This document shows positions 7,215 through 31,564 of a DNA stretch of 36,193 bases, piece by piece; the stretch's first letter is position 1; each line of letters begins with the position of its first letter. Source of the stretch: a virus; IMG/VR virus record IMGVR_UViG_3300045988_064948. One strand, written 5' to 3'. Both the position numbers and the translations under genes were made by a program. The notes below the pieces were generated by a model, which was given only the letters and a program-made list of their open reading frames with translations, ran no database searches and was not told the DNA's origin.

Positions 7215-10200
7215 ATTTATTTGAAGTATTTATTAAAATCGGAGCGGACACATCCGAATCCGATAAGGCAATAAAGGACACAGGCGCAAAGACTAAAGAG
7301 CTGGGCGAAAAGGTTAAAAGCGGTTTAAAAACCGTTGCCAAAGTAGCCGCTGCCGCAACAGGCGCAATGGCGGCAGGCGTATCAAAGGTAGTCAAGGACG
7401 CGACAGCCGCTTATGCCGATTATGAGCAGCTCGTCGGCGGCGTTGAGACTCTTTTCAAGAAATCGTCTAACACCATCCTGCAATATGCGGATAACGCATA
7501 TAAAACAGCGGGACTTTCTGCCAATCAGTATATGGAGACCGTGACAAGCTTCTCGGCTTCGCTCTTGCAGTCCTTGGGCGGCGACACCGTGAAAGCATCA
7601 AAGTATGCGGATATGGCAATCACGGACATGGCGGATAACTACAACAAGCTCGGCACGGATATGTCCTTAGTCCAGTATGCCTATCAAGGCTTCGCAAAGC
7701 AGAACTTTACGATTAAATTTATCTATAGTCCGGCGGCGTGAGTAATCCGCCGTTGAGTGTGAGTGAACCCTACCAGGGGTGTGGGAGAAATCCTGCTAAC
7801 GGGAAAAATCTGTGGGCAAAAGCCTATGACAATCCCGTGCCAAGTCCTAAAATATAAATAATTTCACTTGCATAATAGGTGAAATTGTGTTATAATATTT
7901 TAGGAAAGGTCTAACGGCTATTGGTTCGTTACCAAGTACATCATCTATTGGTACGATGGTGGAAGCGCTCACCAACCTTTAACGGAGGAATTGACTATGG
8001 AAATTTGGAAGCCTATTGAAGAACTGCCCGGTTATTCTGTTAGCGATAAGGGCAGGGTAAGAAAAGACAGCAACGGTCAAATAATGGTGCTCAGTAAAAA
8101 TGGTGGTTATTGCAGAATAACAATTTCAAAGAGCATTCATCGGCTTGTTGCAAAAGCGTTTCTTGACGCTCCTGAGAACAAAGAGCAGTGCTGGGTTGAC
8201 CACATTGACGGAAACCGAGCAAACAACGATGTGAACAACTTGAGGTGGGTAACTCCTTCGGAAAATTGTTTAGCTTTTGGGTATAAAAGCCGCATCGAAA
8301 ACAAGAAGCGCAAAGTCAAGGCAACAAATATTCACGGTCAAACAATCATTTTTGAGTCCAGACAAGCGGCGGCAGAATATTTTGAATGTAGCGATTCCGA
8401 GATTGCTTACGGTCGCTTATATAAAAAAGGAAACAAAAAAGGTTGGTCTTTTGAAAAGGTTGAAGATATAGTCTAATCCCCTAATAAATATCGGGAAACC
8501 GAGGGTATAAAATGGTTAGATAACCTTAAGCTGGGTAGACAAAAAAATATGCCTTTAGCGGCATAACACCATTGCTCAGCATAAACCTCGTGAAAACGGT
8601 GAAACTCTTACCGGGCAATGCCGAAGAAAACACCGTGGTAAATTGACTGCGTAAAATACGCAAAGTCATAACACCTGAACGACTATCGAAACGACGGTGA
8701 AAACCGGAACGGAGTAGAGTACACCCAAGCGGGTGGAAGCGCGAGGGACTATTAAAATAGTCAAGAGATAGTCTGAACTGTATGGAAACATACAGCAGCC
8801 GAAAGGTGGTCACAGAGTAGCGACCTGTGGCGAACATAATGTATGGTGGCACTAAAGAGGAAATGGAGCGCCTCCTGAGAGACGCCGAAAAGCTGACAGG
8901 CAAGAAGTTTGACATTTCCAGCTATGCTGATATCGTCGAAGCAATACACGCCGTGCAAAAAGAAATGGGCATTGCTGGCACGACCGCAAAAGAAGCGGCA
9001 ACGACCATTCAAGGCTCTGTGAGTTCCGCTAAAGCGGCGGGGCATAATCTGCTAGTCGGCATTGCAGACGACAATCAGGACTTCGGCAAACTGGTCGATA
9101 ACTTTGTCGACTCCGTTGTAATTGCGGCTGGCAATATCCTGCCCCGCGTGGAGCAGTCCTTGACAGGTATCGGAAAGCTCGTCGATAAGCTTGCGCCCGT
9201 GCTTATTGCAAAGCTCCCCGATGTGGTCAACAAAGTTCTCCCTGGACTGCTTGACGCAACAGCAAATCTTTTAAACGGTGTTTTGGATGTACTTCCGACG
9301 CTGATAGACGGAATGGTTCCGCCGCTGTTGTCTGCGTTGTCCGATGTCGCGGCAAAACTGCTGGAAACTGTGCCAAAGTTCTGGGACACAACATTTAAAG
9401 CGATTTTGGCATTTATCACAAGCGACAGTCTGCCAAAACTGATAGAATCGGCAATCAATGCGGTGACTCAGACCGTTATTGCTATTGCGAACACTCTGTC
9501 AGACCCCGCAAGCCTTAACGCAATAATAGAGTCTGCACTCGACTTAGTGCTTGCGCTTGTGCATGGGTTAGTGGACGCTATCCCTCAGCTAATCGCCGCA
9601 GTCCCTCAGCTCGTCGGAGCTATCACGGCAACGATAATTACAGAGCTGCCTAACATCATGGCGGCAGCCGTTGAAATAATGGTAGCATTAATTCACGGAC
9701 TTATGGAAGCGTTGCCCGAACTGATGGCGTATGTGCCTAATGTTATTATAGCGATTACAAATGGACTGCTTAACAATCTTGGTACACTGATAAGCGGCGG
9801 CGTTCGCCTCCTGCTGGCTGTTGCACAAGGTATGATTCAGGCGATTCCTGATATGGTTGCAATGATACCACGAATTATCGCGTCGATAGTTGATGCTTTC
9901 CACTCTTACAACTGGAGCAGCATCGGCAAAAACATCGTGGCAGGAATGAAACAGGGTGTTGCGAATGCTTGGAAGAATTTTAGAGAATGGTTTAAAAACC
10001 TCTTTGGAGACCTCACAAACATTGCTAAAAAGATACTCGGCATTGCCTCGCCGTCAAAGGTGTTTAAAAAAATCGGTCAGTTTACGACCGAGGGACTGGC
10101 AATCGGTATCGAGCAGGGCGGCAAAGACGCATTTTCCGCAATCAAAGATGTCTCGCAGGGTGTTATTGACAATTACGGCGCGTCCGTATCGGCGGGATTT

Positions 10201-11059: not shown

Positions 11060-13153
11060 ATGACTCCAATACTCTTAAAAGCGAATGCTAAAACAAAAAT
11101 AGGCTGGCTGTCAGAATGCACCGAGTGTGAAGTGACGGAGGAGCGCAATGGGGTGTATGAGCTTGAGCTTGTATACCCCATTGGCGCAACCCATGCCAAT
11201 GATATTGTGACGGATTGCTATATTAAGGCAAAGCCGAATCAGGCAAGCGAGAATCAGCTATTCCACATTTATAAAGTCTCAAAGCCTATTAACGGCGAGT
11301 TCACGGTTTACGCGGAGCACGTCAGTTATATTCTTTCGGGCTATCCTGTGCCGACTGTTTCCGCATCTGGCAACGCGCAAGTCGCGATAAACGCTATATT
11401 GACCGCTGCAAAAAATCAAATAGGAAAAGCAACAGGATTCACAGCGGCGACAACTGATATAACGATTTCCTCGTCAATCAATCTTTCCAATGTTTCAGCC
11501 CGTGCGGCTCTCGGCGGTGTTGAGGGCTCTGTGCTTTACACCTACGGCGGCGAATACGAGTTCGACAACTACACAATCAAGCTCCATAAATCGCGCGGCA
11601 AAGACAACGGCGTGAGAATAGCCTACGGCAAAAACATGACGGAGCTCAAATGTGATGTTGATATGTCCGCGTCATATACTGGAATATTCGGCTATGTCAA
11701 AACAGACGATATCAACCTCACAAGCTCTTACAATGTCACAAACACAAGCGGTATTTCAACGCGCATACTCGTCCGTGATTTTTCTTCCGACTTTGGGGAG
11801 AACGCACCGACACAAAGTTTGCTTGACGCGACTGTTAAGAAATATGCAGAAGATAATGATATCAATTCTATCAAGGCTTCTGTAACCGTTTCTTTTGTCA
11901 ATCTTGCGCAGTCGCCCGAATATGCAAACATCGCGCCGCTTGAGACTGTAAATCTCTGCGATACCGTTAAAATCTATCACAAAGAACTCGGCGTGAATAT
12001 CAAGGCAAAAGTCATAAAAACCGTCTACGATACAATCGCCGAAAAATACACAAAAATAGAACTCGGCAGTGCTCGCGCAGATATGTCGAGCATTATCACG
12101 CAGACGGTCAAAGAAGCAACGGACGCTAAAAACATCGCTATTTCAAGCAAATCGGAAATCACAGAGGCGTATCAAAAGGCAATAGCGGACGCAACAGCGG
12201 CAATCACTGGCAACAGCGGCGGCTATATCAGACTTAATCCGTCCGAGAATCCGCAGGAGCTTTTAATAATGGATACCGCGGACGCGAACACAGCAAAAAA
12301 AATATGGCGGTGGAATCTGTCGGGGCTCGGCTATTCGTCCACGGGCTACAACGGCACATACAAAACTGCAATCACACAGGACGGTCACATCGTCGCCGAC
12401 TTTGTCGATACTGGCACTTTGACCGCTAATATCATCAAAGCCGGAATAATGCAGTCTGCAAACGGTGAGTTTTCCTTTAACCTTGAATCCGGACATATTG
12501 AGGCTTCTGACATCAACATCACTGGCGGCGATATAAACCTTGACGGCGGTCAGCTGTCAATCTTAAACAACGACGGCTACAAAGCGGACTTTTCAGGCGG
12601 AGCGGTGGAGCTTTATCAGGGCGCAGGAACTGGCACTGGAACAGGCACAAAATATTTGTCGCTTTATAACTCACTTATAGGCGGAAAATTGTATGCTACA
12701 CTTGCAAGCCCGTCATACACGCTCGGCGGTGTCCCGTCTGGCGGGTTTAGAATCGGAACGAGCGTTGACAATGTCGCGGCGCTGAGCTCATGGAACACTG
12801 ATTTTGCGCTTATCGGCAAAGACAACGCAAGATTCCGCAAAAAAATCGAGGTCAATGAGTCTTTAAATGTTGCGACGGGCGGCGACGCTATCGGATTTAT
12901 TTCTCACGCGCCGTTTGGTGCTAAAGATATAAGCGTAGAGCTTGGCGCAAAAAGCAATGCACACGGTATTTTGCAGCTTGGCAACAATACGGACGGTACT
13001 ACTCCCGCGAGAATGGAATTTTACGCGAGCGGAACAGGCGGCGCGGGAATGGCGTTGGAGCTTATCGGCTCGACCCTTAGCGGCAGAATTTTTATCGATA
13101 CTGGCGGCATTTACGCGCAGTTCGGAAGCGGCACAGCCGTAAAACTTGCATAA
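11060..13153 (+). CDS. Tail-associated lysin / baseplate hub (Tal; prophage endopeptidase tail family)
   Basis: 697 aa. N-terminus ...ECEVTEERNGVYELELVYP...LFHIYKVSKPINGEFTVYAEHVSYIL matches the phage minor structural protein N-terminal region. It follows Dit. Confidence 0.8.
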   Translation: MTPILLKANAKTKIGWLSECTECEVTEERNGVYELELVYPIGATHANDIVTDCYIKAKPNQASENQLFHIYKVSKPINGEFTVYAEHVSYILSGYPVPTVSASGNAQVAINAILTAAKNQIGKATGFTAATTDITISSSINLSNVSARAALGGVEGSVLYTYGGEYEFDNYTIKLHKSRGKDNGVRIAYGKNMTELKCDVDMSASYTGIFGYVKTDDINLTSSYNVTNTSGISTRILVRDFSSDFGENAPTQSLLDATVKKYAEDNDINSIKASVTVSFVNLAQSPEYANIAPLETVNLCDTVKIYHKELGVNIKAKVIKTVYDTIAEKYTKIELGSARADMSSIITQTVKEATDAKNIAISSKSEITEAYQKAIADATAAITGNSGGYIRLNPSENPQELLIMDTADANTAKKIWRWNLSGLGYSSTGYNGTYKTAITQDGHIVADFVDTGTLTANIIKAGIMQSANGEFSFNLESGHIEASDINITGGDINLDGGQLSILNNDGYKADFSGGAVELYQGAGTGTGTGTKYLSLYNSLIGGKLYATLASPSYTLGGVPSGGFRIGTSVDNVAALSSWNTDFALIGKDNARFRKKIEVNESLNVATGGDAIGFISHAPFGAKDISVELGAKSNAHGILQLGNNTDGTTPARMEFYASGTGGAGMALELIGSTLSGRIFIDTGGIYAQFGSGTAVKLA

Positions 13154-13320: not shown

Positions 13321-13479
13321 ATGGACTATAAAAAAAGGCTGGAAGAGCTGAAAAACACGCTGAAATATTTTGAAGCGCAGGCAAACGCCACACAGGGCGC
13401 AATACAGCTCTTGCAGGAAATCATCGCAGAGGAAGAAACCGATGACGGTAACGGAAATGGAAAATCTGGAAAAAAGACT
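13321..13479 (+). CDS. Small coiled-coil protein (52 aa), function unknown
   Basis: GGAGG lies 5 nt upstream of the ATG at 13321. Sequence is MDYKKRLEELKNTLKYFEAQANATQGAIQLLQEIIAEEETDDGNGNGKSGKKT. It overlaps the next gene in another frame. Confidence 0.4.
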
Positions 13480-13672
13480 TGACGGGCGATATGTTAAGCA
13501 ATCGACTTGCAATCAGAACCACAAAGAAATAGCGGGTAAACTGGCTAACGACGACAAGCGGATAGAAATCGGGCTTGCTAAGTTAGGCGTTGTTGAAAAG
13601 CTGATGTGGACTATTGCAACGGCGACAATCGGAACACTTATTGCAACGGTGTTCGGCATTATTTTTAAATAA
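13442..13672 (+). CDS. XhlA-like small membrane protein (coiled coil plus C-terminal TM)
   Basis: MTVTEMENLEKRLDGRYVKQSTCNQNHKEIAGKLANDDKRIEIGLAKLGVVEKLMWTIATATIGTLIATVFGIIFK. The architecture resembles PBSX XhlA. The longer 13370 start gives an implausible basic extension. Confidence 0.5.
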   Translation: MTVTEMENLEKRLDGRYVKQSTCNQNHKEIAGKLANDDKRIEIGLAKLGVVEKLMWTIATATIGTLIATVFGIIFK

Positions 13673-13687
13673 CAGGAGGACGCAAAA

Positions 13688-13951
13688 ATGGAAAAGTATT
13701 GTAATGGATGTGACACGAAAAGCATTCCGCTTGCGGCGCATGAATCAGCAATGGCAAGAGCGGAGCGGACAACGCGCAGACTGTGCGCACTGATATTAAC
13801 CTTGATACTGCTCCTTTTTGCGTCCAACCTCGCTTGGATTCTTTACGAAAACTCGTTTGAAGATGAGACGAGTCAGACCGTATGGCAAGAAGCCGATAAC
13901 GGTCAAAATAATTTTGTGGGCGGTGACATAGTTGGCGAAACAGGTAGTTAA
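13688..13951 (+). CDS. Small single-pass membrane protein, function unknown
   Basis: AGGAGG RBS. The motif HESAMARAERTTRRL is followed by the TM segment ALILTLILLLFASNLAWILY. Confidence 0.6.
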   Translation: MEKYCNGCDTKSIPLAAHESAMARAERTTRRLCALILTLILLLFASNLAWILYENSFEDETSQTVWQEADNGQNNFVGGDIVGETGS

Positions 13952-14054: not shown

Positions 14055-14834
14055 ATGTTTTTGCCTGACGATACGCCGATTATTTTTAAACTTCCTCGCG
14101 ACAAAGAATATGCGGATATATATTTTATTCACGACTTGCATTATGGCTCGGAGCTGTTCGACGCAAAGAAGTGGAATAATTTGAAAGCGCAGATAATCGC
14201 AGACCCTAACGCCTACATCTGCTGGGTAGGAGACCTTATGGAGGACGCTATCCCAAACAGCAAGTCCGACATATTTACACAGACCGCAAGCCCCGCGCAC
14301 CAAAAAGAATGGGTTACAGAACAGCTATCCGAACTCAAAGAAAAGACCATAGCCGTAGTGCCCGGCAATCATTGTCACAACCGCGCTACAAAAACTTGCG
14401 GACTTTATCCTCTGTATGACTGTTGTTTAATCGCAGGAATCGGGAAAAAATACCGCGACACAATAGCCTTTTTAAACATAGCAATCGGAGAGATTAAGCC
14501 GTCAAGCGCAAAGCAGATACATTATTTTGGGCAGCTACAACATCAGGCAAAAGATATTAAATCAGTTCATTCCGCCGACTATACGGACGGCATAGACTTC
14601 TTCGCAAGCGGGCACGACCACGAAGCAAAAGACCGACCACGCGCAAAGCTTGTTTTTGACAAGTACAACAACAAAATCACCAAAAAGAATATAGAGTGTA
14701 TCAACTGCGGCTCTTTCTTATCGTTTGGCGGCTATGGGGCAAAATCGGCGTATCGTCCGCAGTCTGACAAGCTTTATGTCCTGCGGATATCGGGCAAGAA
14801 GAAATCTATGCAAACAATAGGCTTTTATGTATGA
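14055..14834 (+). CDS. Calcineurin-like metallophosphoesterase
   Basis: Motifs DLHYGS, GDLMEDA, PGNHC and GHDHE. AGGTGG lies 5 nt upstream of the ATG at 14055; an alternative GTG start is at 14046. Confidence 0.8.
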   Translation: MFLPDDTPIIFKLPRDKEYADIYFIHDLHYGSELFDAKKWNNLKAQIIADPNAYICWVGDLMEDAIPNSKSDIFTQTASPAHQKEWVTEQLSELKEKTIAVVPGNHCHNRATKTCGLYPLYDCCLIAGIGKKYRDTIAFLNIAIGEIKPSSAKQIHYFGQLQHQAKDIKSVHSADYTDGIDFFASGHDHEAKDRPRAKLVFDKYNNKITKKNIECINCGSFLSFGGYGAKSAYRPQSDKLYVLRISGKKKSMQTIGFYV

Positions 14835-15037
14835 TTGACACAGCGAAATTATCCCGCGAAGAATGGGAAAATCTGATTTATCAGCGAATCCACAACGAAA
14901 CATACAGGAAGATTATATCACGCCGCTGGCTTGACGGCGTAAAGCAGGAGGATTTAGCGGAAGAGTTCGGCTATTCTGTCCGACAAATTCAGAATATAAT
15001 CTATAGGTGTGAAAAACTGATTATAAAATATCTGTAA
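14831..15037 (+). CDS. Small sigma-70 region-4-like HTH regulator
   Basis: 68 aa. WLDGVKQEDLAEEFGYSVRQIQNIIYRCEKL resembles a sigma region 4 / ArpU-like HTH. ATGA-coupled to the upstream gene. Confidence 0.55.
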   Translation: MIDTAKLSREEWENLIYQRIHNETYRKIISRRWLDGVKQEDLAEEFGYSVRQIQNIIYRCEKLIIKYL

Positions 15038-15064: not shown

Positions 15065-15093
15065 TTGACAAATGACAAACAATGCTTTATAAT
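15065..15093 (+). promoter_or_regulatory. Sigma-A-type promoter (TTGACA, 17-nt spacer, TATAAT)
   Basis: TTGACA at 15065-15070 and TATAAT at 15088-15093. Confidence 0.6.
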
Positions 15094-15099
15094 ATCTAA

Positions 15100-15204
15100 T
15101 AGTGATTGGTTTGATTTTGGGTCACGATTACTCCTTTCTTTATTTTTTTACCCCCTTTTAAAAAGTAGCAGAGCAGCATCGAGAAATCGGTGCTGTTTTG
15201 CTTT
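15100..15204 (+). ncRNA. Candidate ~105-nt sRNA (promoter at 15065 to terminator at 15174-15204)
   Basis: No ORF with an RBS lies on the + strand. It contains the CU-rich stretch ACTCCTTTCTTTATTTTTTT and ends in an intrinsic terminator. Confidence 0.35.
15174..15204 (+). terminator. Intrinsic terminator
   Basis: Stem CAGCATCGA / TCGGTGCTG (9 bp, one G-U), GAAA loop, then TTTTGCTTT. Confidence 0.65.
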
Positions 15205-15208
15205 ATAC

Positions 15209-15236
15209 TTGACTTTTTTATAATATGTGATACAAT
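15209..15236 (+). promoter_or_regulatory. Sigma-A-type promoter (TTGACT, 16-nt spacer, TGaTACAAT)
   Basis: TTGACT at 15209-15214 and TACAAT at 15231-15236, preceded by TG. Confidence 0.5.
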
Positions 15237-15242
15237 ATATAT

Positions 15243-15296
15243 GCTTCATGCGTGTCTACAAAGGTGCTCGGCTTCGGCTGGGCGCTTTTGTTTTTT
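15243..15296 (+). ncRNA. Candidate ~55-nt sRNA ending in a UUCG-tetraloop terminator
   Basis: Promoter at 15209-15236. Hairpin AGGTGCTCGGC-TTCG-GCTGGGCGCTT (15262-15287) is followed by TTTTGTTTTTT. The same hairpin could act as a terminator for - strand transcripts. Confidence 0.35.
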
Positions 15297-15326
15297 AAAA
15301 AAGTTCAAAAATATTTTAAAAAGCTA

Positions 15327-15355
15327 TTGACAAGTGCGGCAAAACAGTATATAAT
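15327..15355 (+). promoter_or_regulatory. Sigma-A-type promoter, conserved AAAAAGCTATTGACAA...AGTATATAATATA class
   Basis: TTGACA at 15327-15332, 17-nt spacer, TATAAT at 15350-15355, with an upstream A-tract. Confidence 0.7.
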
Positions 15356-15387
15356 ATAACTGCAAAACAAAGAAGGGAGACATTAAA

Positions 15388-15519
15388 ATGATTTTAAAAC
15401 TTGCAATTCAGACAGTCTTTGAAATCCTGCTCGTTGTGGGTATTATCTATGGGTTTATAAAAGAAGACAAGCTTATCGCGTTCGAGGATAAGCTTGCCGA
15501 AAAGTTTAAAAAGCGTTAA
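15388..15519 (+). CDS. 43-aa small membrane protein
   Basis: GGGAG RBS. MILKLAIQTVFEILLVVGIIYGFIKEDKLIAFEDKLAEKFKKR has an N-terminal TM segment and an amphipathic charged tail. Its stop overlaps the stop of the convergent gene 15516..15806. Confidence 0.55.
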   Translation: MILKLAIQTVFEILLVVGIIYGFIKEDKLIAFEDKLAEKFKKR

Positions 15520-15806
15520 TCAAGGTTGACGAGCTTTTGCAAGGTGGCTTGATATAGATTTATATTGATACACTTGATAGCCTCTAAAAGCTCATTAATT
15601 ACCCCTAAAACAGCCGTTAAATTTTTACCACTAATTATCTTATAAAACTCGGAATCACCCTTTACGGGCACATTTTGAGGGTCTGAGAGGGCATGGTACA
15701 ACAAAGCACAGTAAAGCGGCGCAAGTTTGTTCAGCGCCGTGAAAGAGTTGTCATAATCTAATTCATACTGTGTCAAATCGGCTTTAATGGAATTGTAGTC
15801 AATCAT
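15516..15806 (-). CDS. Hypothetical protein (96 aa), last gene of the antisense island
   Basis: GGAGG RBS 7 nt upstream. No recognisable motifs. Confidence 0.6.
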   Translation of the reverse strand: MIDYNSIKADLTQYELDYDNSFTALNKLAPLYCALLYHALSDPQNVPVKGDSEFYKIISGKNLTAVLGVINELLEAIKCININLYQATLQKLVNLD

Positions 15807-15817
15807 ATAATACCTCC

Positions 15818-15845
15818 AAAGGCAGAGCTCACGCCCTGCCTTTTT
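15818..15845. terminator. Hairpin AAAGGCAG-N10-CTGCCTTT; on the + strand it is followed by TTTTTGTCATTTT (terminator-like)
   Basis: 8-bp stem (15818-15825/15836-15843). On the - strand it sits between two island genes and abuts the GGAGG of the downstream gene. Confidence 0.5.
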
Positions 15846-15846
15846 G

Positions 15847-16293
15847 TCATTTTACGATATAATTATAGTATGCAGCCATTTTGGACTCAGGAGACTTTGC
15901 GTCCTTGTCGAATAAAAAGGCTTTTGCGAGTTCCGCGTAAAACTCAGGAGCGGGCAGACCGTATTTTTTGCCGACCTCATAATAGTCAGAATACATCATA
16001 TTAACTGCCGTGTTCCAGCAATAGTCAGGGACTCTTCCGTTGTTGCCTGCCATAGCGTTAGTCTGCGCCATGTTCCAGACTGCGCCGGACGAGCCGTCTG
16101 CATTTTTCATTTTTTCGTTCCACGCTTCGCAGTCCTCGCGGGTCAATGCGCCGGAGCCTATATCTCCGAGAGCTTCCCAACATTCGAGCATTCCCATAAC
16201 CGCTTCGGCGGCGCGTTCGCTTGCAGGTCTTTCCATATAGTCGGATATTTCCGCTTCAAGCTTTTTCCTGTATGCATCAATTTTCTCTTTCAT
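15847..16293 (-). CDS. Hypothetical protein (148 aa) with a conserved-looking W..KMKNADGSSGA.W...QT...MMYSDYY core
   Basis: The ATG at 16293 has a GGGGG RBS 14 nt after the upstream stop. The longer 16392 start would overlap the upstream gene. Confidence 0.6.
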   Translation of the reverse strand: MKEKIDAYRKKLEAEISDYMERPASERAAEAVMGMLECWEALGDIGSGALTREDCEAWNEKMKNADGSSGAVWNMAQTNAMAGNNGRVPDYCWNTAVNMMYSDYYEVGKKYGLPAPEFYAELAKAFLFDKDAKSPESKMAAYYNYIVK

Positions 16294-16307
16294 GCAATAC
16301 CCCCGAC

Positions 16308-16709
16308 TTACAGCTTTTCGACCGATATTGCAAGATTGTTGACGACAGAAGCCGCGCCTGTCAGGACAAAAGACAGAATAGAGCTGTCGCAATCGCAGAC
16401 ATTCCGGACTATAGCCGTTATCGCCATGTTGACCGTTGTGCTCGCCGCTGCTACAGTTTCAGACGCGGTCGCGCCGATTATCGCAACGCCGTCTTTCTGT
16501 GCGGTGATTGTTGCTGTTCCTGCCGCCGACGGTGTGACGGTTGCGGAGGCGTTAATCAAATAATAACCTTTTCCGGTCATTGTTATGGTGTTGCCGTCCT
16601 GTCGGAGATTGCAGCCATAGCGGCGCGCAGTAGTGCCGACCGGAATAACACTGTTGACCGCGATTGTCTGTTCCGCCGTGTTAGTTGTGTATATTGCTGA
16701 TTTTGACAT
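16308..16709 (-). CDS. Beta-rich protein resembling a BclA C-terminal (TNF/C1q-like jelly-roll) domain
   Basis: 133 aa and Ala/Thr/Val-rich. The pattern ...GKGYYLINASATV...AQKDGVAIIGA...LAISVEKL recalls the BclA C-terminal domain, judged from memory only. AAAGGA RBS. Confidence 0.35.
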   Translation of the reverse strand: MSKSAIYTTNTAEQTIAVNSVIPVGTTARRYGCNLRQDGNTITMTGKGYYLINASATVTPSAAGTATITAQKDGVAIIGATASETVAAASTTVNMAITAIVRNVCDCDSSILSFVLTGAASVVNNLAISVEKL

Positions 16710-16837
16710 TTTATCAATCCTTTCTGTAATAAAAAAACGGAGCGACTATTGCCGCCCCGCCGTGCCTCGCCGTCAGGGCGTTACCATGTTGCCGGCATCG
16801 GCAAAATGGTGTATGTTTTGCTGGTGTTAGCAAAACA

Positions 16838-17407
16838 TTAGATGTTATTGCCGCAACAGCCGCCGCAGAACGGCGAATTTCCTGCGCTGTAGGAGTAAGA
16901 CATCGGATAACGGACTACACCGCAGAAACGGGAATCCATTTCCAGGCTGGAAACTTTGTCGCGCAGTGTCTGAATCTCGTTAGTCTGAATCAGAGCGCGT
17001 GTTGCCTCGCCCTCCGCGTGGATAGCGTTAGCGATGTCACAGGTCTGTCTGTCGACCTGCGCTGAGAGATTGGCAGTTGCCAGTCTGTTATCGCAGCAAC
17101 AAGAAGCGAGCTGGCTCTGAAGCGCTCTGCCCTCAGCGTTAATGGAATTGTTAAGCGCGTAGGTACTGTCACAGATTCCGTTGCTGATGTTAGTCAGGCG
17201 GTCGTTGAGCTGCCCGAAGTGCTGACCGAAAAGAATCTCCTGCTGGCTTGCCGCTGTTGCGTACTGCCCGAACTCGCCCTGACGGTTGCCCCAAAATCCG
17301 CCGCCCATGAGGACGACAAAAAGAAGAACAATCCACCATGCGCCGCCGCTAAAGCCGTCGCCGTCGCGAGTAGCGGCAGCAAGGTCAGAAAGTGAATATT
17401 CGTTCAT
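16838..17407 (-). CDS. Membrane-anchored Cys-rich coiled-coil protein, function unknown
   Basis: AGGAAG RBS 7 nt upstream of the ATG at 17407. N-terminal TM segment GGAWWIVLLFVVLMGGGFWG, a Q/N/A-rich helical region with CCC and other Cys residues, and C-terminus FCGGCCGNNI. Confidence 0.6.
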   Translation of the reverse strand: MNEYSLSDLAAATRDGDGFSGGAWWIVLLFVVLMGGGFWGNRQGEFGQYATAASQQEILFGQHFGQLNDRLTNISNGICDSTYALNNSINAEGRALQSQLASCCCDNRLATANLSAQVDRQTCDIANAIHAEGEATRALIQTNEIQTLRDKVSSLEMDSRFCGVVRYPMSYSYSAGNSPFCGGCCGNNI

Positions 17408-17448
17408 TTGCAATCTTCCTTTCTAAAATTTATAATAAACCGCGCAGT

Positions 17449-17643
17449 TTATTTCAAAAGTTTCATCAAATCCTGTGCCTGCTGTTTATACTGATTTAGC
17501 TGGCTTTCGGATATTTTGCCTGTGTTTAAAAGGCTCTGAAGTTCCTGCTGTGCTTTTTCGGGTGTCATTCCGCTTGCAAATTTTTTAAATTCTGAAATCA
17601 TCGAAAAGGGGTTATTCTGCTTCCCGAATATGCTGCTTGCCAT
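17449..17643 (-). CDS. Small helical protein (64 aa), function unknown
   Basis: AAGGAA RBS upstream of the ATG at 17643; the track start at 17649 is TTG. It overlaps the 3' end of the upstream gene. Confidence 0.5.
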   Translation of the reverse strand: MASSIFGKQNNPFSMISEFKKFASGMTPEKAQQELQSLLNTGKISESQLNQYKQQAQDLMKLLK

Positions 17644-17959
17644 TTTCAATCATTCCTTTCAGCTCTTCAAATTCTTTCCTCGTCACATAGTCGGGCGAAT
17701 CGGGCTGTGCGTCATCGCACGGAACAAATTTAAACTTGCGAATTGATGCAAATCCCGCGCCGTCCGTGGTCTTGATATAGAAAAAATCTTCGTTTGCATC
17801 AAACAAAGCGACGGAGCTATTCGCTCCCATCTGATACGCTTGTGCTCCCTGGATTCCGTTGACCCTGACGATACCACGCTCTAAATTCTGCACGCAGTTT
17901 TGATAATTCTGCGTGTAGTTTTGATAGTTAGGATAATTCGGATAATATGGGTTAAACAT
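17612..17959 (-). CDS. Protein with an N-terminal Tyr/Asn/Pro/Gln-rich low-complexity segment, function unknown
   Basis: AAAGGAGG RBS. MFNPYYPNYPNYQNYTQNYQN is followed by a globular part, VNGIQGAQAYQMGANSSVALFDANEDFFYIKTTDGAG. Confidence 0.65.
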   Translation of the reverse strand: MFNPYYPNYPNYQNYTQNYQNCVQNLERGIVRVNGIQGAQAYQMGANSSVALFDANEDFFYIKTTDGAGFASIRKFKFVPCDDAQPDSPDYVTRKEFEELKGMIENGKQHIREAE

Positions 17960-17979
17960 ATAATTCCTCCTTTATCTCT

Positions 17980-18007
17980 ATTATACGCATATCGTGGAAA
18001 AAGTGAA
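17980..18007 (-). promoter_or_regulatory. Candidate promoter of the antisense island
   Basis: On the - strand: TTCACT (18007-18002), 16-nt spacer, TATAAT (17985-17980), just upstream of the AAAGGAGG RBS. Confidence 0.4.
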
Positions 18008-18071
18008 CGAAGCGAACACGAAAAAAGCCCGCAAAAAACGTTAAAAAAGCTAAAAAATTTTAAAAAAACTA

Positions 18072-18100
18072 TTGACAAATACAGTCAAACAGTATATAAT
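18072..18100 (+). promoter_or_regulatory. Early rightward promoter, conserved AAAAAACTATTGACAA...AGTATATAATATA class
   Basis: TTGACA at 18072-18077, 17-nt spacer, TATAAT at 18095-18100, with upstream A-tracts. Divergent from the island promoter. Confidence 0.7.
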
Positions 18101-18151
18101 ATAGTCACAAGGTCAAGGAAGACCAACAAAATAAAGAAAGAGGTAAAAACA

Positions 18152-18391
18152 ATGAAAGACTTTGAAATCTGCTTGAGCAATCGGGACTGCATCTTTGACA
18201 GCGCGACTTTTGACGACGCAAAAGCGGCGGCAGAGTGGGCGACGGGAAGAAGAGAAAACTACGTTATACAAGGCGATAACGGGCTTAATGTAAAATCGTC
18301 AAAAGACAAGCTTTATGTCGAAAACTTTTACGGCTACGAAGAGATATCCGAAGATGAGCTTGTTGAAATGATTAAAAGATACGCAGAGTGA
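18152..18391 (+). CDS. Hypothetical early protein (79 aa)
   Basis: GAGGT RBS. The longer track ORF from 17900 would run through the promoter and is rejected. Confidence 0.6.
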   Translation: MKDFEICLSNRDCIFDSATFDDAKAAAEWATGRRENYVIQGDNGLNVKSSKDKLYVENFYGYEEISEDELVEMIKRYAE

Positions 18392-18468
18392 CGCGCCGAA
18401 AGGCGCGGTAATGCGGACAGACGGACGGTCACAATCCCGACGGTCGCACATAAAAGGAGGAAAAAATA

Positions 18469-18912
18469 ATGTTTATTTGCAAAGACTGTGGAAGCGTTTT
18501 TGAATGCCCCGACTACACGGAAGAGAACGTCGGCGAGTACTGCGGTCAGCCCGCATTTCAGGCGGTTGACATCTGCCCGTATTGCCATTGCGATGAGTTT
18601 GAAGAGGCGAGAAAGTGCGAAATCTGCGGCGAATGGAAGTCGGAAGATGACATGGAGTGCGATGTCTGCTATGACTGCATGAATGAGCACAAGTACGATT
18701 TTGACTATTGTGAGAGTTTGTGCGGAGACGAAACGGAGGCGGTGCAGATTAACGCGCTGTATGCGTCGCTTTTAACACCGCGTCAGATTAACATGATACT
18801 GCGCCGCGAGTTGAAGCAGGCTAACGCGATTCAGCCGCTGGATTGCACAGAGTTCATCGACTCCGACCGCACATGGTTCGCGGACAAAATGATAGAAAAG
18901 GAGGTAAAATAA
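18469..18912 (+). CDS. Multi-zinc-ribbon protein (several CxxC pairs), function unknown
   Basis: AGGAGG RBS. CxxC pairs: CKDC, CPYC, CEIC, CDVCYDC. Confidence 0.6.
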   Translation: MFICKDCGSVFECPDYTEENVGEYCGQPAFQAVDICPYCHCDEFEEARKCEICGEWKSEDDMECDVCYDCMNEHKYDFDYCESLCGDETEAVQINALYASLLTPRQINMILRRELKQANAIQPLDCTEFIDSDRTWFADKMIEKEVK

Positions 18913-27689: not shown

Positions 27690-28031
27690 ATGACACTTGA
27701 AGAAGCAATCGACATTGTGAAATGTGCAATCGGAGAGGTCGAATGGAATTATCCTCTTGATTACGCTGAAGCGTTTGAAGTTGCGATTGAAGCTCTCGAA
27801 AAGCAGATACCGCGAAAGTGTCGCATTAAGAGCACCGCAAAGTTACAAACTTTTTATTGCCCTACTTGCGAACAGGTTATTGTATCAAGGATTGAAAATG
27901 AGTGGTTAGCAGGGCGATTACAGAAATATTGTGATAGTTGCGGACAGGCGTTAATTTGGGGTGATTATGAAACTCCTGACCCTGATGATTATTGCAGTTG
28001 CGGAGAATTGAAGGAGGGTGACACGGAATGA
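27690..28031 (+). CDS. Zinc-ribbon protein, paralogue pair R2
   Basis: AFEVAIEALEKQIPRK...CPTCEQ...YCDSCGQALIW. Confidence 0.6.
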   Translation: MTLEEAIDIVKCAIGEVEWNYPLDYAEAFEVAIEALEKQIPRKCRIKSTAKLQTFYCPTCEQVIVSRIENEWLAGRLQKYCDSCGQALIWGDYETPDPDDYCSCGELKEGDTE

Positions 28032-28726
28032 AACCTATCTATATACCGAAAGGAAAAGCAAGGGAATACGGAGATTACGCAATAAACATTTATACAGGAT
28101 GTCCGCACAGGTGTTATTACTGTTTCGCACCAAATGTTTTGCGTCGCGACCGTGAATTATTCCACAGCAATATAACCCCACGAGAAAACATTGTGGAGGA
28201 AACGGCAAAACAAATTGCGCGTGAGAACATAACAGGAAAGCTTATACATCTTTGCTTTACCTGCGACTCGTACCCGACAGGATATGACAGTACACCTACA
28301 AGGGAAATAATTAAAATACTTAAAGATAGCGGCAATAATGTGCAGATTTTAACCAAGGGTGACGGCAACCGTGATTTTGACTTGCTTGATGAAAATGACT
28401 GGTATGGAATAACTCTTGACGGAATAAAAGGTTGTTGCAAAGCGCCCTATCGGGAAAGGCTAAATAGTCTTGCCGAAGCACATAACAGAGGCGTAAAAAC
28501 TTGGGTGTCGTTTGAGCCTGTAACCGACGGCGAACAATTTTTTATTGACCTGCACCGTGTCTCATTTGTTGATAAGGTCAAAATCGGCAAACTGAACTAT
28601 CACCCCTCAAACATTGATTGGAAAGACTTCGGCAAAAAAGCAGAGGACTTATGTAAAAAGTTAAACATTGACTATTACATAAAAGATAGTTTAAGAGCTG
28701 AAATGGAAGGTGATGCCAATGGCTGA
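28028..28726 (+). CDS. Radical SAM domain protein (short, SplB/COG1533-like N-terminus)
   Basis: The CX3CX2C cluster motif in NIYTGCPHRCYYCFAP lies near the N-terminus. 232 aa; GGAGGG RBS. Confidence 0.65.
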   Translation: MKPIYIPKGKAREYGDYAINIYTGCPHRCYYCFAPNVLRRDRELFHSNITPRENIVEETAKQIARENITGKLIHLCFTCDSYPTGYDSTPTREIIKILKDSGNNVQILTKGDGNRDFDLLDENDWYGITLDGIKGCCKAPYRERLNSLAEAHNRGVKTWVSFEPVTDGEQFFIDLHRVSFVDKVKIGKLNYHPSNIDWKDFGKKAEDLCKKLNIDYYIKDSLRAEMEGDANG

Positions 28727-29147
28727 TGCAGACAGATGTATATGCTGCGGAGAGATAGTCCCCGAAGGTCGGCAAATATGTCCGCAATGCGAGCGCAAAA
28801 GGTACATCTACACTATTCCTGATATCCCGCCGTCGTTAAACAAGTTCGCAGGGCGCGAGAATGTATGGGCGTACAGAGCGGACAAAAAGCAGTGGGAAGC
28901 TCTGTGCGCGGCGTACTGCCGCCCGAAGCCGTCCGAGCCGATTAAAAAGTGCGTTGTCAGAATTACATACTTTTTCCGCACAAGGCAGCGGCACGACCCC
29001 GACAACTACAACGGCAAATTTATCCTCGACGGCTTGCGCGAAGCGGGAATAATTGAAGATGACAGCTTTTCAAATGTCGAGCTTCAGCTGTGCGGGAGCT
29101 ATGACAAAGAAAACCCGCGAACAGAAATAACAGTAAAGGAGCTTTAA
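28719..29147 (+). CDS. rusA: RusA-family Holliday junction resolvase with an N-terminal zinc ribbon
   Basis: CICCGE...CPQC is followed by ...RHDPDNYNGKFILDGLREAGIIEDDS, the RusA catalytic Asp motif pattern. An alternative ATG is at 28710. Confidence 0.75.
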   Translation: MADADRCICCGEIVPEGRQICPQCERKRYIYTIPDIPPSLNKFAGRENVWAYRADKKQWEALCAAYCRPKPSEPIKKCVVRITYFFRTRQRHDPDNYNGKFILDGLREAGIIEDDSFSNVELQLCGSYDKENPRTEITVKEL

Positions 29148-29149
29148 AA

Positions 29150-29509
29150 ATGGATTGCAACAAAACGATAGACTTCTTTGCCGAACTTAAAAGACTTTGT
29201 AATTCACGCACAAGGTGCACAACTGATGCGGCTAACAAAGAGCAATGCCCGATGTTTGGGTTTTGTGAGCGCGCGCTCACAAAAATCTGCGTCGAAGATG
29301 CTATGAAGTTAGTTGAGGTTATACAAAAATGGAGCAACGAACACCCAAAGAAAACATACGCACAGGATTTTTTTGAAAAGTTCCCAAAAGCACCCAAGGA
29401 CAAATCATTTAAAGAAAAATGTCCTTGGGTGTGTCGAATGGGAATATACGGCGGAGAGTGTCCGGGGGCAGGCTGCGATGAATGCTGGAACGAACCAATG
29501 GAGGAATAA
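29150..29509 (+). CDS. Cys-rich hypothetical protein
   Basis: 119 aa. AAGGAG RBS. ...WSNEHPKKTYAQDFFEKFP...CDECWNEP. Confidence 0.55.
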   Translation: MDCNKTIDFFAELKRLCNSRTRCTTDAANKEQCPMFGFCERALTKICVEDAMKLVEVIQKWSNEHPKKTYAQDFFEKFPKAPKDKSFKEKCPWVCRMGIYGGECPGAGCDECWNEPMEE

Positions 29510-29511
29510 CA

Positions 29512-29886
29512 ATGCATGAAACAAGAGATGCAGCACGGGAGCTGCGAATGCAAGGCTTAACCTTTGCAGAAATAGGCAAAAGGCTTGGAGTGTCAAAGCA
29601 GAGAATCGCGCAGTGTTGCGCAGGAATGAATCCCGAACAGACAGCTTGGGCTTGTCACAAGGAAGACCTTGACTGCATAATTTATGTGGGTTTAAAAAAG
29701 TGGATGCTTGAAAACAGAGTATCAGTGCCCGAAATGATGCGCAGAATAGGCTTAGACACTGGGAGCAGCCGGTCTGAACACTTTAAAAACAGGCTAAAAG
29801 GCAAAACGCAATTATCGATAACCGAGATAAAAAAAATACTCGCCGTAACTGGCGGAACATTCGAGCAGATGTTCACAACCGATTGA
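29512..29886 (+). CDS. HTH regulator (sigma region 4 / LuxR-like HTH at the N-terminus)
   Basis: ELRMQGLTFAEIGKRLGVSKQRIAQ. GGAGG RBS upstream of the ATG at 29512. It directly precedes the promoter of the methylase/terminase operon. Confidence 0.55.
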   Translation: MHETRDAARELRMQGLTFAEIGKRLGVSKQRIAQCCAGMNPEQTAWACHKEDLDCIIYVGLKKWMLENRVSVPEMMRRIGLDTGSSRSEHFKNRLKGKTQLSITEIKKILAVTGGTFEQMFTTD

Positions 29887-31063: not shown

Positions 31064-31172
31064 AGAAGCAAAAGCGGCTATAGCAAAGACTAAAAGCCCA
31101 TACCTGAAAAGAGACCTTGAAAAATTCATTGCGCGACAAGAAAAGAAAAGCAAAAGGAGAGCAAATGCTTAG
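31053..31172 (+). CDS. Possible 39-aa basic protein
   Basis: The ATG overlaps the methylase 3' end. MTIEEAKAAIAKTKSPYLKRDLEKFIARQEKKSKRRANA. No clear RBS. Confidence 0.25.
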   Translation: MTIEEAKAAIAKTKSPYLKRDLEKFIARQEKKSKRRANA

Positions 31173-31228
31173 AAGAATAGCAAAGACACTTGAAATATGT
31201 GCTAAAATAAGCCTTGCGAGGTGATAAC

Positions 31229-31564
31229 ATGGCAAAGAAGATGCCTGAGGGCAGACCGTTTACAACGGAAACGGCTAAAGAGTACGGACACAACGGTGGT
31301 AAAGCGTCAGGGGAAGCGAAACGCAAAAAGAAGCTTTTAAAGGACTGCCTTAATGAGCTTTTGGCAAGCGAAATAACCGACAAGCACGGAGTGACGAGAA
31401 CGGGAAGCGAAGCCGCCGCTGTTGTACTGTGGAGCAAGTTTATGAAAACGGGAGACCCGCGAATTTTTGAAGTGATACGCGACACGGCAGGCGAAAAGCC
31501 CGTTGATAAAGTGGAGCAAGTCACAGAGATAAAAGTGGACTGGGAAGATGAAAATAACGATTAA
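31229..31564 (+). CDS. Putative terminase small subunit
   Basis: 111-aa basic protein immediately upstream of and overlapping TerL. ...GGKASGEAKRKKK...GDPRIFEVIRDTAGEKP. Confidence 0.5.
   Translation: MAKKMPEGRPFTTETAKEYGHNGGKASGEAKRKKKLLKDCLNELLASEITDKHGVTRTGSEAAAVVLWSKFMKTGDPRIFEVIRDTAGEKPVDKVEQVTEIKVDWEDENND

Follow-up and report, generated by a model that had tools for sequence, protein, structure and literature searches.

We analysed a 36,193-nucleotide (nt) stretch of viral DNA, IMG/VR record IMGVR_UViG_3300045988_064948, referred to here over its whole length as the window. This siphophage-type genome of ~36 kb carries nearly all of its genes on the plus strand, with the exception of an island of six minus-strand genes, P1 to P6 (15516-17959), placed between the late and early blocks. 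The late genes encode an amidase, head proteins, a tape measure, Dit, Tal (11060-13153), and an XhlA-like protein (13445-13672), followed past the XhlA-like gene, on the same strand, by an 87-amino-acid (aa) membrane protein, a phosphoesterase, and a 68-aa helix-turn-helix (HTH) protein. The early genes, also on the plus strand, start at ~18150 and encode Sak, NinB, SSB, DnaD/DnaC-like proteins, a ParB-methylase, and the terminase. Near-identical copies of the window are 35.6-36.2-kb contigs from metagenome assemblies, while related GenBank records originate from human faecal samples and related viral contigs from IMG/VR. The island is one copy of a widespread, virus-restricted accessory operon.

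All six open reading frames (ORFs) are present on the minus strand, and independent gene callers made the identical six-gene call on 8 near-identical metagenomic contigs. AT skew is negative at 16001-18000 only (-0.16, -0.12) and positive elsewhere, and GC skew also inverts at 16-18 kb. The purine fraction at codon position 1 is 0.68 +/- 0.04 in plus-strand genes and 0.58-0.64 in the island genes scored (P1 and P4 were left out, as overlapping ORFs displaced them in the ORF tiling), compared with 0.36-0.40 in the remaining long minus-strand ORFs (29020-29553 and 31126-31524), both of which overlap plus-strand genes. Because the skew inverts at 16-18 kb only and the other minus-strand ORFs have non-coding codon statistics, the island is the sole convincing minus-strand coding block of the window. 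A consensus scan placed a candidate sigma-A-type promoter for the island (TTCACT-16-TATAAT, 17980-18007, minus strand) back to back with a perfect TTGACA-17-TATAAT early promoter (18072-18100, plus strand), and ribosome-binding sites (RBS) of the GGAGG or GAAAGGA type can be read 6-10 nt 5′ of every island gene. No integrase was found among the window ORFs of >300 aa that were checked (amidase, head-morphogenesis, tape measure, Tal, ParB-methylase, terminase, and portal), and P1-P6 matched no repressor, Cro, or excisionase in Pfam or PHROG and no HTH family in Pfam, PHROG, or NCBIfam. A preliminary description of this DNA had proposed six antisense genes forming the only minus-strand coding block, with good RBSs and their own promoter divergent from an early promoter at 18072, and with no visible integrase, CI/Cro-like HTH, or excisionase; each of these points held on closer analysis. 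With neither an integrase nor a repressor, a lysogeny module is ruled out.

P1 (17612-17959, minus strand, as are all island genes) is a 115-aa protein of PHROG 21718, a family of unknown function, and consists of a disordered Tyr/Asn/Gln-rich head (residues 1-29; YPNYPNYQNYTQNYQN), a small alpha/beta domain (residues 30-78, predicted local distance difference test (pLDDT) score >90), and a C-terminal helix. P2 (17449-17643; 64 aa counted from ATG; PHROG 22984) is helical and overlaps the 3′ end of P1 by 32 nt. Its relatives have a head rich in Met/Asn/Pro/Gln, and it bears a weak resemblance to the tape-measure family TMP_2 (E 0.003). P3 (16838-17407, 189 aa) is the anchor family of the module. 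It combines an acidic N-terminal tail, a single Gly/Trp-flanked hydrophobic segment (GGAWWIVLLFVVLMGGGFWG), a helical region with conserved cysteines (CCC), and a Pro/Tyr/Cys-rich tail of the conserved form VVRYP..Y.Y.AG.SPFCG..C, ending FCGGCCGNNI in the window. The 16-residue hydrophobic core is kept in 75 homologues with a mean hydropathy of 1.92, next to an acidic N-terminal tail.

P4 (16308-16709, 133 aa) begins MSKSAIYTTNT, is beta-rich, and by sequence comparison does look like the C-terminal (C1q/TNF-like) domain of BclA, as the preliminary description had suggested. Residues 7-122 align to positions 2-114 of the BclA_C profile (PF18573; 113 of its 128 positions) with 21.6 bits and E 2.2e-4, below the gathering cut-off of 38 bits, and the five best matches of the P4 family profile to the PDB are all BclA chains (E 1.5e-4 to 1.2e-3). 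P4 contains no collagen-like GXX repeats, inspection by eye revealed no BclA-type N-terminal anchoring sequence, and P4 variants carry Cys clusters. P5 (15847-16293; 148 aa from ATG; core W..KMKNADGSSGAVW...MMYSDYY) is a member of DUF7841 (PF25223; 62.7 bits, E 4.7e-17, cut-off 25.2), and its AlphaFold model is all-alpha (pLDDT 89). The window protein has a single domain; many DUF7841 relatives (P0415-P0494; L067 4638-5327; L080 3917-4516) carry disordered extensions of 70-200 residues that are rich in Arg/Gly (RGG-like), Met, Asn, Tyr, and Asp and contain the recurring motif RFRDRRGREHYDNGRF. In one cluster (P0548, 533 aa), DUF7841 is fused to an LPD3-like polyvalent-protein domain scoring 19 bits, below the cut-off of 27. 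P6 (15516-15806, 96 aa) is helical and is conserved in 39 related loci, including those of Clostridium perfringens phages.

Apart from these matches, the proteins have few recognisable relatives. Pfam holds no family for P1, P2, P3, or P6, and the P5 family is a domain of unknown function; NCBIfam gave no match for the island proteins, and searches against PDB sequences returned nothing significant for P1, P4, and P5 singly or for the P1, P3, and P5 family profiles. The predicted-structure search recommended in the preliminary description was run for two of the six proteins, P1 and P5, and found no solved fold: at E <= 0.001, Foldseek returned no PDB match for the AlphaFold model of P1 (structured core pLDDT >90) or that of P5, and the BFVD matches of P5 are solely DUF7841 proteins. 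PADLOC, searched with the six proteins plus four neighbours or analogues, gave no match at E <= 0.1 (best line P4 against AbiEi, E 0.23, 8.9 bits), which rules out a known defence system. The five proteins other than P3, when judged by eye, show neither a hydrophobic N-terminal signal-like or membrane segment nor a lipobox-type N-terminus. Literature searches on DUF7841, on phage-encoded BclA or exosporium genes, and on virion proteomes of module carriers yielded nothing usable.

The same genes recur together in many other viruses. A pattern scan of viral contigs for P3 recovered 60 loci, and all fetched loci were then searched by tblastn and iterative hidden Markov models (HMMs). P1, P2, P3, and P4 were detected in 69, 67, 67, and 65 of 71 loci, respectively, always on one strand and in the order P1-P2-P3-P4, so that the co-occurrence proposed as a check in the preliminary description is found, with shared order and orientation, in most of these related loci. 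After this core comes one of three arrangements: P5 (25 loci), P6 (25 loci, in most of which a 175-189-aa protein precedes it), or P5 together with P6 (9 loci, window included). In 23 loci the place of P5 is taken by a ferritin-like protein, whose profile gives weak but consistent matches to 23 ferritin chains (E 1.5e-3 to 5e-2) over the first two helices only, with the di-iron ligands partly kept. In hhalign comparisons, P5 and the ferritin-like protein are unrelated (E 0.49), and the BclA-C-like P4 is not linked to the alternative small beta proteins. Protein clusters at 90% identity number 3095 for P3, 4627 for P1, and 3238 for P5, while DUF7841 comprises 2017 at 50%. No P3 or P5 match was found among 72,556 plasmids, and the sources searched hold no functional name for the P1, P3, and P5/DUF7841 families.

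The position of the module differs between lineages. One prophage shows the order holin, M23 peptidase, small HTH, P1-P5, and host comEC; in two temperate phages (L053 and L061) the module has the lysis genes on one side and the integrase on the other, and in a further locus (L082) it stands last in the late region, convergent with the replication genes. In the virulent C. perfringens phages vB_CpeS-17DYC, HMD-PC1, and PMQ04, it is found among early genes, between an antirepressor and Gam/recombinase. The block from P1 to the small beta protein is present in these three phages, whereas phiCP13O, 9O, 26F, 34O, and 39-O, to which they are 93-97% identical, do not have it. Between 17DYC and phiCP13O, 2.9 kb (L078:4405-7307) is replaced within flanks of 96-98% identity, and the replaced 17DYC block holds a variant antirepressor gene, P1-P4alt, a 65-aa ORF, and the 5′ end of P6. 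Because phiCP13O-type relatives lack the block but keep these flanks, the module is dispensable for lytic growth in this phage lineage. An essential virion or lysis component is ruled out at least in the C. perfringens phages, where the block is naturally missing. The reading of the island as a moron-like accessory cassette, first made in the preliminary description, is borne out by placement at prophage ends or after lysis genes, by the island's own promoter in the window, by U-run hairpins that precede P1 in L053 and L069 (consensus scan only), and by presence or absence among close relatives, including near-identical C. perfringens phages.

DUF7841 and P3 homologues are also found side by side in crAss-like Suoliviridae. 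In cr52_1 (L080), gp22 and gp23 are the module pair (P3 HMM E 1e-10, P5 HMM E 1e-29); in gp23 the segment is again flanked by Gly/Trp, a QLASCCCD motif is present, and the tail takes the form RP.P....C.PYGC; a small beta-rich protein comes next, and pholin, LysB/FtsL-like, and transpeptidase-like genes lie in the neighbourhood. Every in-frame stop in the P3-like gene and its neighbours (L080 2644-7902) is TAG, consistent with recoding. In cr10_1, the order is pholin, a transmembrane (TM)-coiled-coil protein (LysB/FtsL-like in the cr52_1 record), P5-like, P3-like, and beta protein, with a transpeptidase-like gene later. The cultured Bacteroides uniformis phage C3_41T2LP encodes, among its recombination genes, a P3-like protein, a beta protein, a coiled-coil protein, an Arg/Asp/Tyr-rich peptide, DUF7841, and a PolyVal peptidase. 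P3-like proteins (PHROG 16490) further occur in viruses or proviruses assigned to Methanomassiliicoccales, namely vir215 (L085 4659-5540), where the gene stands a few genes before the integrase, and vir335 (H119/H120); in these copies the C-terminal Cys tail is absent. Anoxic gut samples are the source of all carriers. A scan of genome contigs found six phage-like contigs binned into metagenome-assembled genomes without host assignment, and the one host hint, a single named cluster member, points to Candidatus Limivicinus. Bacteroidota and Methanomassiliicoccales do not form spores. Because carriers infect Bacteroidota and possibly archaea, the module is not spore-specific, and we consider it very probable that it is a conserved accessory module with neither a lysogeny nor a spore function.

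Two patterns of conservation bear on how the proteins may work together. P3 tails of the type VVRYP..SPFCG pair with the BclA-C-like P4, and in L067 and the C. perfringens, crAss-like, and Bacteroides phages, tails of the type RP.P....C.PYGC accompany the other small beta-rich protein. Because the type of P3 tail co-varies with the type of small beta protein, this suggests that the tail and the beta protein that follows may touch. In addition, P4 keeps 96-99% identity in comparisons in which the tail protein Tal falls to 73-79%. As P4 outconserves Tal, and as the P3/P5 pair occurs in viruses of both Firmicutes and Bacteroidota, the target of the module is probably conserved rather than receptor-specific.

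The spacer between P3 and P4 contains a terminator- or attenuator-like element of two hairpins (16729-16780, minus strand). The first is small (CGCC...GGCG, 16780-16768); the second is GC-rich (16761-16736) and is followed by a U run to ~16729, ~25 nt before the P4 RBS. Across 12 divergent loci, 9 of 15 pairs retain pairing via double changes. Because the hairpin pair is conserved with compensating changes, the operon probably holds an internal terminator or attenuator.

Several flanking features accompany the module. A small sigma-70 region-4-like HTH gene (14831-15037, plus strand; 68 aa; sigma-region-4/GerE/DUF1492-like) is linked to it in 60 of 72 loci, standing immediately before P1 in the same orientation in 30, and convergent beyond the 3′ end in the other 30, as in the window. 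These two arrangements indicate that the window shows the P1-P6 block inverted relative to the late genes. The single-pass 87-aa membrane protein (13688-13951, plus strand) was detected in 35 related loci, the same number in which the HTH gene was detected, and its gene adjoins the HTH gene wherever coordinates were inspected. A 43-aa membrane ORF (15388-15519, plus strand), found in close relatives only, is driven by its own perfect consensus promoter (15327-15355). It reads toward the island, with a 4-nt overlap at the P6 stop codon. Because no terminator is present between this ORF and P6, antisense transcription into P6 and P5 from the 15327-15355 promoter is possible. Direct copies of a 61-nt early-promoter region flank the island (15298-15358 and 18043-18103, 79% identity), the left one driving the 43-aa ORF, and a 22-nt inverted repeat (86% complementary) brackets the island (15128-15149 and 18125-18146), with the right arm covering the RBS of the first early gene. 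These flanking repeats may be traces of a module-inverting rearrangement, or regulatory sites. Between the late genes and the island, 15065-15300 (plus strand) holds two strong promoters, each with a terminator-like hairpin after it: a perfect consensus promoter (15065-15093) with a hairpin at 15167-15202, and TTGACT-16-TACAAT (15209-15236) with a hairpin at 15258-15291, an arrangement that could produce two short RNAs of ~110 and ~55 nt.

Other elements of the window lie further from the island. A group I intron (Rfam RF00028, 62 bits) at 8544-8795 (plus strand) interrupts the tape-measure region, adjoined by an HNH/NUMOD4 endonuclease ORF (region 7991-8476), and positions 8443-8523 share 90-96% identity with many SPO1-like Listeria, Staphylococcus, and Enterococcus phage sequences. 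In the early operon, a twister-P5 ribozyme (RF02684; 56.7 bits, cut-off 37.6) occupies 18382-18440 (plus strand); the first early ORF (18152-18391) precedes it, and an ORF for a Cys-rich protein of 147 aa (18469-18912) follows. The Amidase_3 endolysin (400-1404) is encoded between portal-side genes and the head-morphogenesis gene, ~12 kb from the post-tail genes for the XhlA-like and 87-aa membrane proteins (13445-13951).

Since only P3 has a segment of the membrane-spanning type and the other proteins apparently carry no export signals, we propose that P3 would be embedded in the infected cell's cytoplasmic membrane and would point its Cys-rich helical domain into the cytoplasm. Its C-terminal tail would dock the P4 jelly-roll, presumably a trimer, and P1, P2, P5, and P6, several of which have low-complexity disordered regions, would assemble on the P3 scaffold. 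The complex would then control traffic across the infected cell's membrane, with exclusion as the first candidate and holin or lysis timing as the second. A role in membrane traffic is put forward because the module is virus-restricted, dispensable, found in both virulent and temperate phages, near lysis genes or prophage ends, and does not track receptor-binding proteins. We assign a probability of roughly 35% to this reading, in which a complex that P3 anchors in the infected cell's cytoplasmic membrane would keep out superinfecting phages or adjust when lysis occurs. As the mechanism of first choice, exclusion at the membrane, by which the genomes of superinfecting phages are shut out, is offered tentatively.

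A number of observations weigh against such a complex. The positive-inside rule does not settle the topology of P3 (K+R 1.0 on both sides), and no homology of the six proteins to exclusion or lysis-control proteins was found. The known exclusion proteins are, to our knowledge, single small proteins, and we know of no five- or six-gene complexes among them. The complex itself is one that we infer from synteny and co-variation over three lineages. The genomic settings also disagree, as the crAss-like P3 is found in a TAG-recoded, presumably late, region as opposed to the early or recombination genes of the C. perfringens and B. uniformis phages, and the DUF7841-LPD3-like fusion together with the neighbouring PolyVal peptidase hints at packaged, injected proteins.

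A broader and more doubtful version of the membrane complex can also be envisaged. The module might be a machine shared across the gut virome, by viruses of Firmicutes, Bacteroidota, and possibly methanogenic archaea, in which the P3 scaffold with its P4 jelly-roll trimer would recruit the disordered P1, P2, and DUF7841 proteins to form a virus-built, membrane-tethered matrix or condensate. If true, this would be a new class of infection-stage structure without a characterised counterpart.

The hint of packaged proteins leads to an account that we regard as unlikely though not far-fetched, in which the module encodes virion-associated accessories: either a decoration or fibre built of a P3 stalk and a P4 knob, or head-packaged proteins that, in the manner of solo polyvalent-protein domains, are ejected with the DNA and aid entry or early takeover. 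Restriction to viruses without plasmid matches, and dispensability of the kind seen in decoration proteins, are consistent with this account, as are the trimeric-knob type of the P4 fold, which is used at fibre tips, the TMP_2 resemblance of P2, and the Gly-rich hydrophobic segment and coiled coil of P3, both of which recall tape-measure and ejection proteins. The crAss-like copies lie among virion genes in their TAG-recoded region, the LPD3-like fusion and the PolyVal peptidase fit delivery with DNA, and the Arg/Gly-rich disordered extensions could bind DNA. However, the window operon diverges from the early promoter, has a sigma-A-type promoter, and is encoded on the strand opposite to all virion genes, and the placement with early or recombination genes in the C. 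perfringens and B. uniformis phages argues in the same direction; the LPD3 match is below cut-off and comes from a single cluster, and the literature gave no virion proteome for any carrier. Proximity to lysis genes suggests instead that the module is an accessory of the lysis cassette, whose membrane complex would control when the holin triggers, in an antiholin- or lysis-inhibition-like manner, or would assist release in another way. The module directly follows holin and endolysin in many Firmicutes relatives, in cr10_1 it stands between the pholin and TM-coiled-coil genes and the transpeptidase-like gene, its neighbours in the window are the XhlA-like and 87-aa membrane proteins, and P3, with a TM segment, a coiled coil, and Cys, is shaped like an i-spanin or antiholin. 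We nevertheless consider this rather improbable, as the module is dispensable, has no lipoprotein partner, and is carried by phages of monoderm hosts, where spanins play no role; moreover, several phages have it among early genes far from their lysis genes, and the window endolysin is 14 kb away.

Three further explanations fare less well. Cargo of the toxin-antitoxin, abortive-infection, or other defence or counter-defence type at a variable phage locus would account for presence or absence between near-identical phages and for the prophage-end position, where such cargo accumulates. We judge it improbable, given that there is no PADLOC match and no plasmid copy, that virulent phages carry the module, and that content and order are conserved across very distant phages, unlike the swapping seen at hotspots. 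Handling of metals or redox chemistry in anaerobic hosts, through iron, Fe-S, or Zn binding at the membrane, is suggested by the ferritin-like protein that takes the place of P5 in 23 loci, by the conserved CCC and Cys-rich tail of P3 and the Cys clusters of P4 variants, and by the anoxic gut origin of all carriers. The two-helix extent of the ferritin match, its partly kept ligands, and the unrelatedness of P5 to the ferritin-like protein make this very improbable, and no transporter or known metallochaperone accompanies the module. The preliminary description had raised the hypothesis of a moron cassette acting on the host cell or spore surface, for example in superinfection exclusion, and had cited a SplB-like gene in its favour. 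In the spore or exosporium version of this idea, the Tyr-rich, Cys-rich, and BclA-C-like proteins would be coat-like material. The BclA_C-like fold of P4, the low-complexity Tyr/Asn/Gln, Arg/Asp/Tyr, and Cys/Gly/Tyr segments reminiscent of coat proteins, a GerE-type small HTH upstream in one relative, and the sporulating hosts of some carriers (C. perfringens) all speak for it. A spore-surface function did not survive the host range, with P3/P5 modules in crAss-like and B. uniformis phages and P3-like proteins in viruses assigned to Methanomassiliicoccales, and it is left with hardly any probability. Furthermore, P4 has no collagen stalk, Pfam and NCBIfam gave no match to a coat or exosporium family besides the BclA_C fold, and no secretion or sporulation-promoter signal was seen. 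The supposed SplB link (28028-28726, plus strand) also fell away: the gene matches Radical_SAM (E 9e-10) and reaches ~40 bits against PA0069/Rv2578c, whose cut-offs are 360-430 bits, so it is not a verified spore photoproduct lyase. Because the similarity is generic to radical SAM proteins, this gene adds nothing to the spore idea.

The module thus falls outside any characterised kind of phage system in its breadth, rigid order, RNA element, and composition, and no description of it was found in the PDB, NCBIfam, PADLOC, or the literature searched. Through it, DUF7841 and three PHROGs of unknown function can be placed in a specific genomic context. An abundant and virus-restricted module that can be dispensed with in the laboratory, shared across hosts that have little in common but a cytoplasmic membrane and the gut habitat, suggests an ecologically important step of infection, such as phage-phage competition, release timing, or entry. 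Because cultured carriers (17DYC, HMD-PC1, PMQ04, and C3_41T2LP) and natural module-minus relatives (phiCP13O, phiCP26F, and phiCP39-O) exist, the question is directly testable.

Individual components of the module resemble parts of known systems. The C-terminal domain of BclA is the C1q/TNF-like trimeric knob of the Bacillus exosporium filament, and P4 aligns over almost the whole of this domain (PF18573; PDB 1WCK, 3TWI, 2Z5W). Unlike BclA, P4 is a phage-encoded, stand-alone protein of 133 aa without a GXX stalk, and an unrelated beta-rich protein substitutes for it in some lineages. P3 shares with the i-spanin Rz, antiholins, and phi29 p16.7 an N-terminal hydrophobic segment, a helical coiled coil, and conserved Cys, and is often encoded beside lysis genes. 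It differs from spanins and antiholins in being dispensable, as far as the C. perfringens lineage indicates, in its presence in phages of monoderm hosts, and in its additional Pro/Tyr/Cys tail. Of the two parts of a two-component spanin, the TM and helical layout is present in P3, while no o-spanin partner with a lipobox was seen by eye; homology of P3 to i-spanins, antiholins, or p16.7 was not detected, and the PDB profile search was empty.

Solo LPDs of polyvalent proteins have been proposed to act early after delivery with DNA (Iyer et al. 2017, PMC5512222). The module recalls these proteins through the one DUF7841 relative with an LPD3-like domain and through the PolyVal metallopeptidase beside it in one Bacteroides phage, but P5 of the window has a single domain and the island contains no MuF fusion or peptidase. 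Superinfection-exclusion membrane proteins such as lactococcal Sie2009, Streptococcus thermophilus Ltp, T4 Imm, and HK97 gp15 are single small proteins. By analogy, the module would resemble them in being accessory, phage-encoded, and predicted to be membrane-anchored, with a moron-type position or its own promoter and with both temperate and virulent carriers. In contrast, it consists of five or six co-evolving genes whose products are mostly apparently soluble and carry disordered low-complexity regions; it has no sequence or fold similarity to the exclusion proteins and is conserved across host phyla. Morons downstream of lysis genes in Firmicutes prophages are normally lineage-specific cargo. 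Like them, the module can lie between the lysis genes and attR/integrase, with flanking hairpins, its own promoter, and variable presence; unlike them, its content and order are conserved in thousands of phages, including strictly virulent ones.

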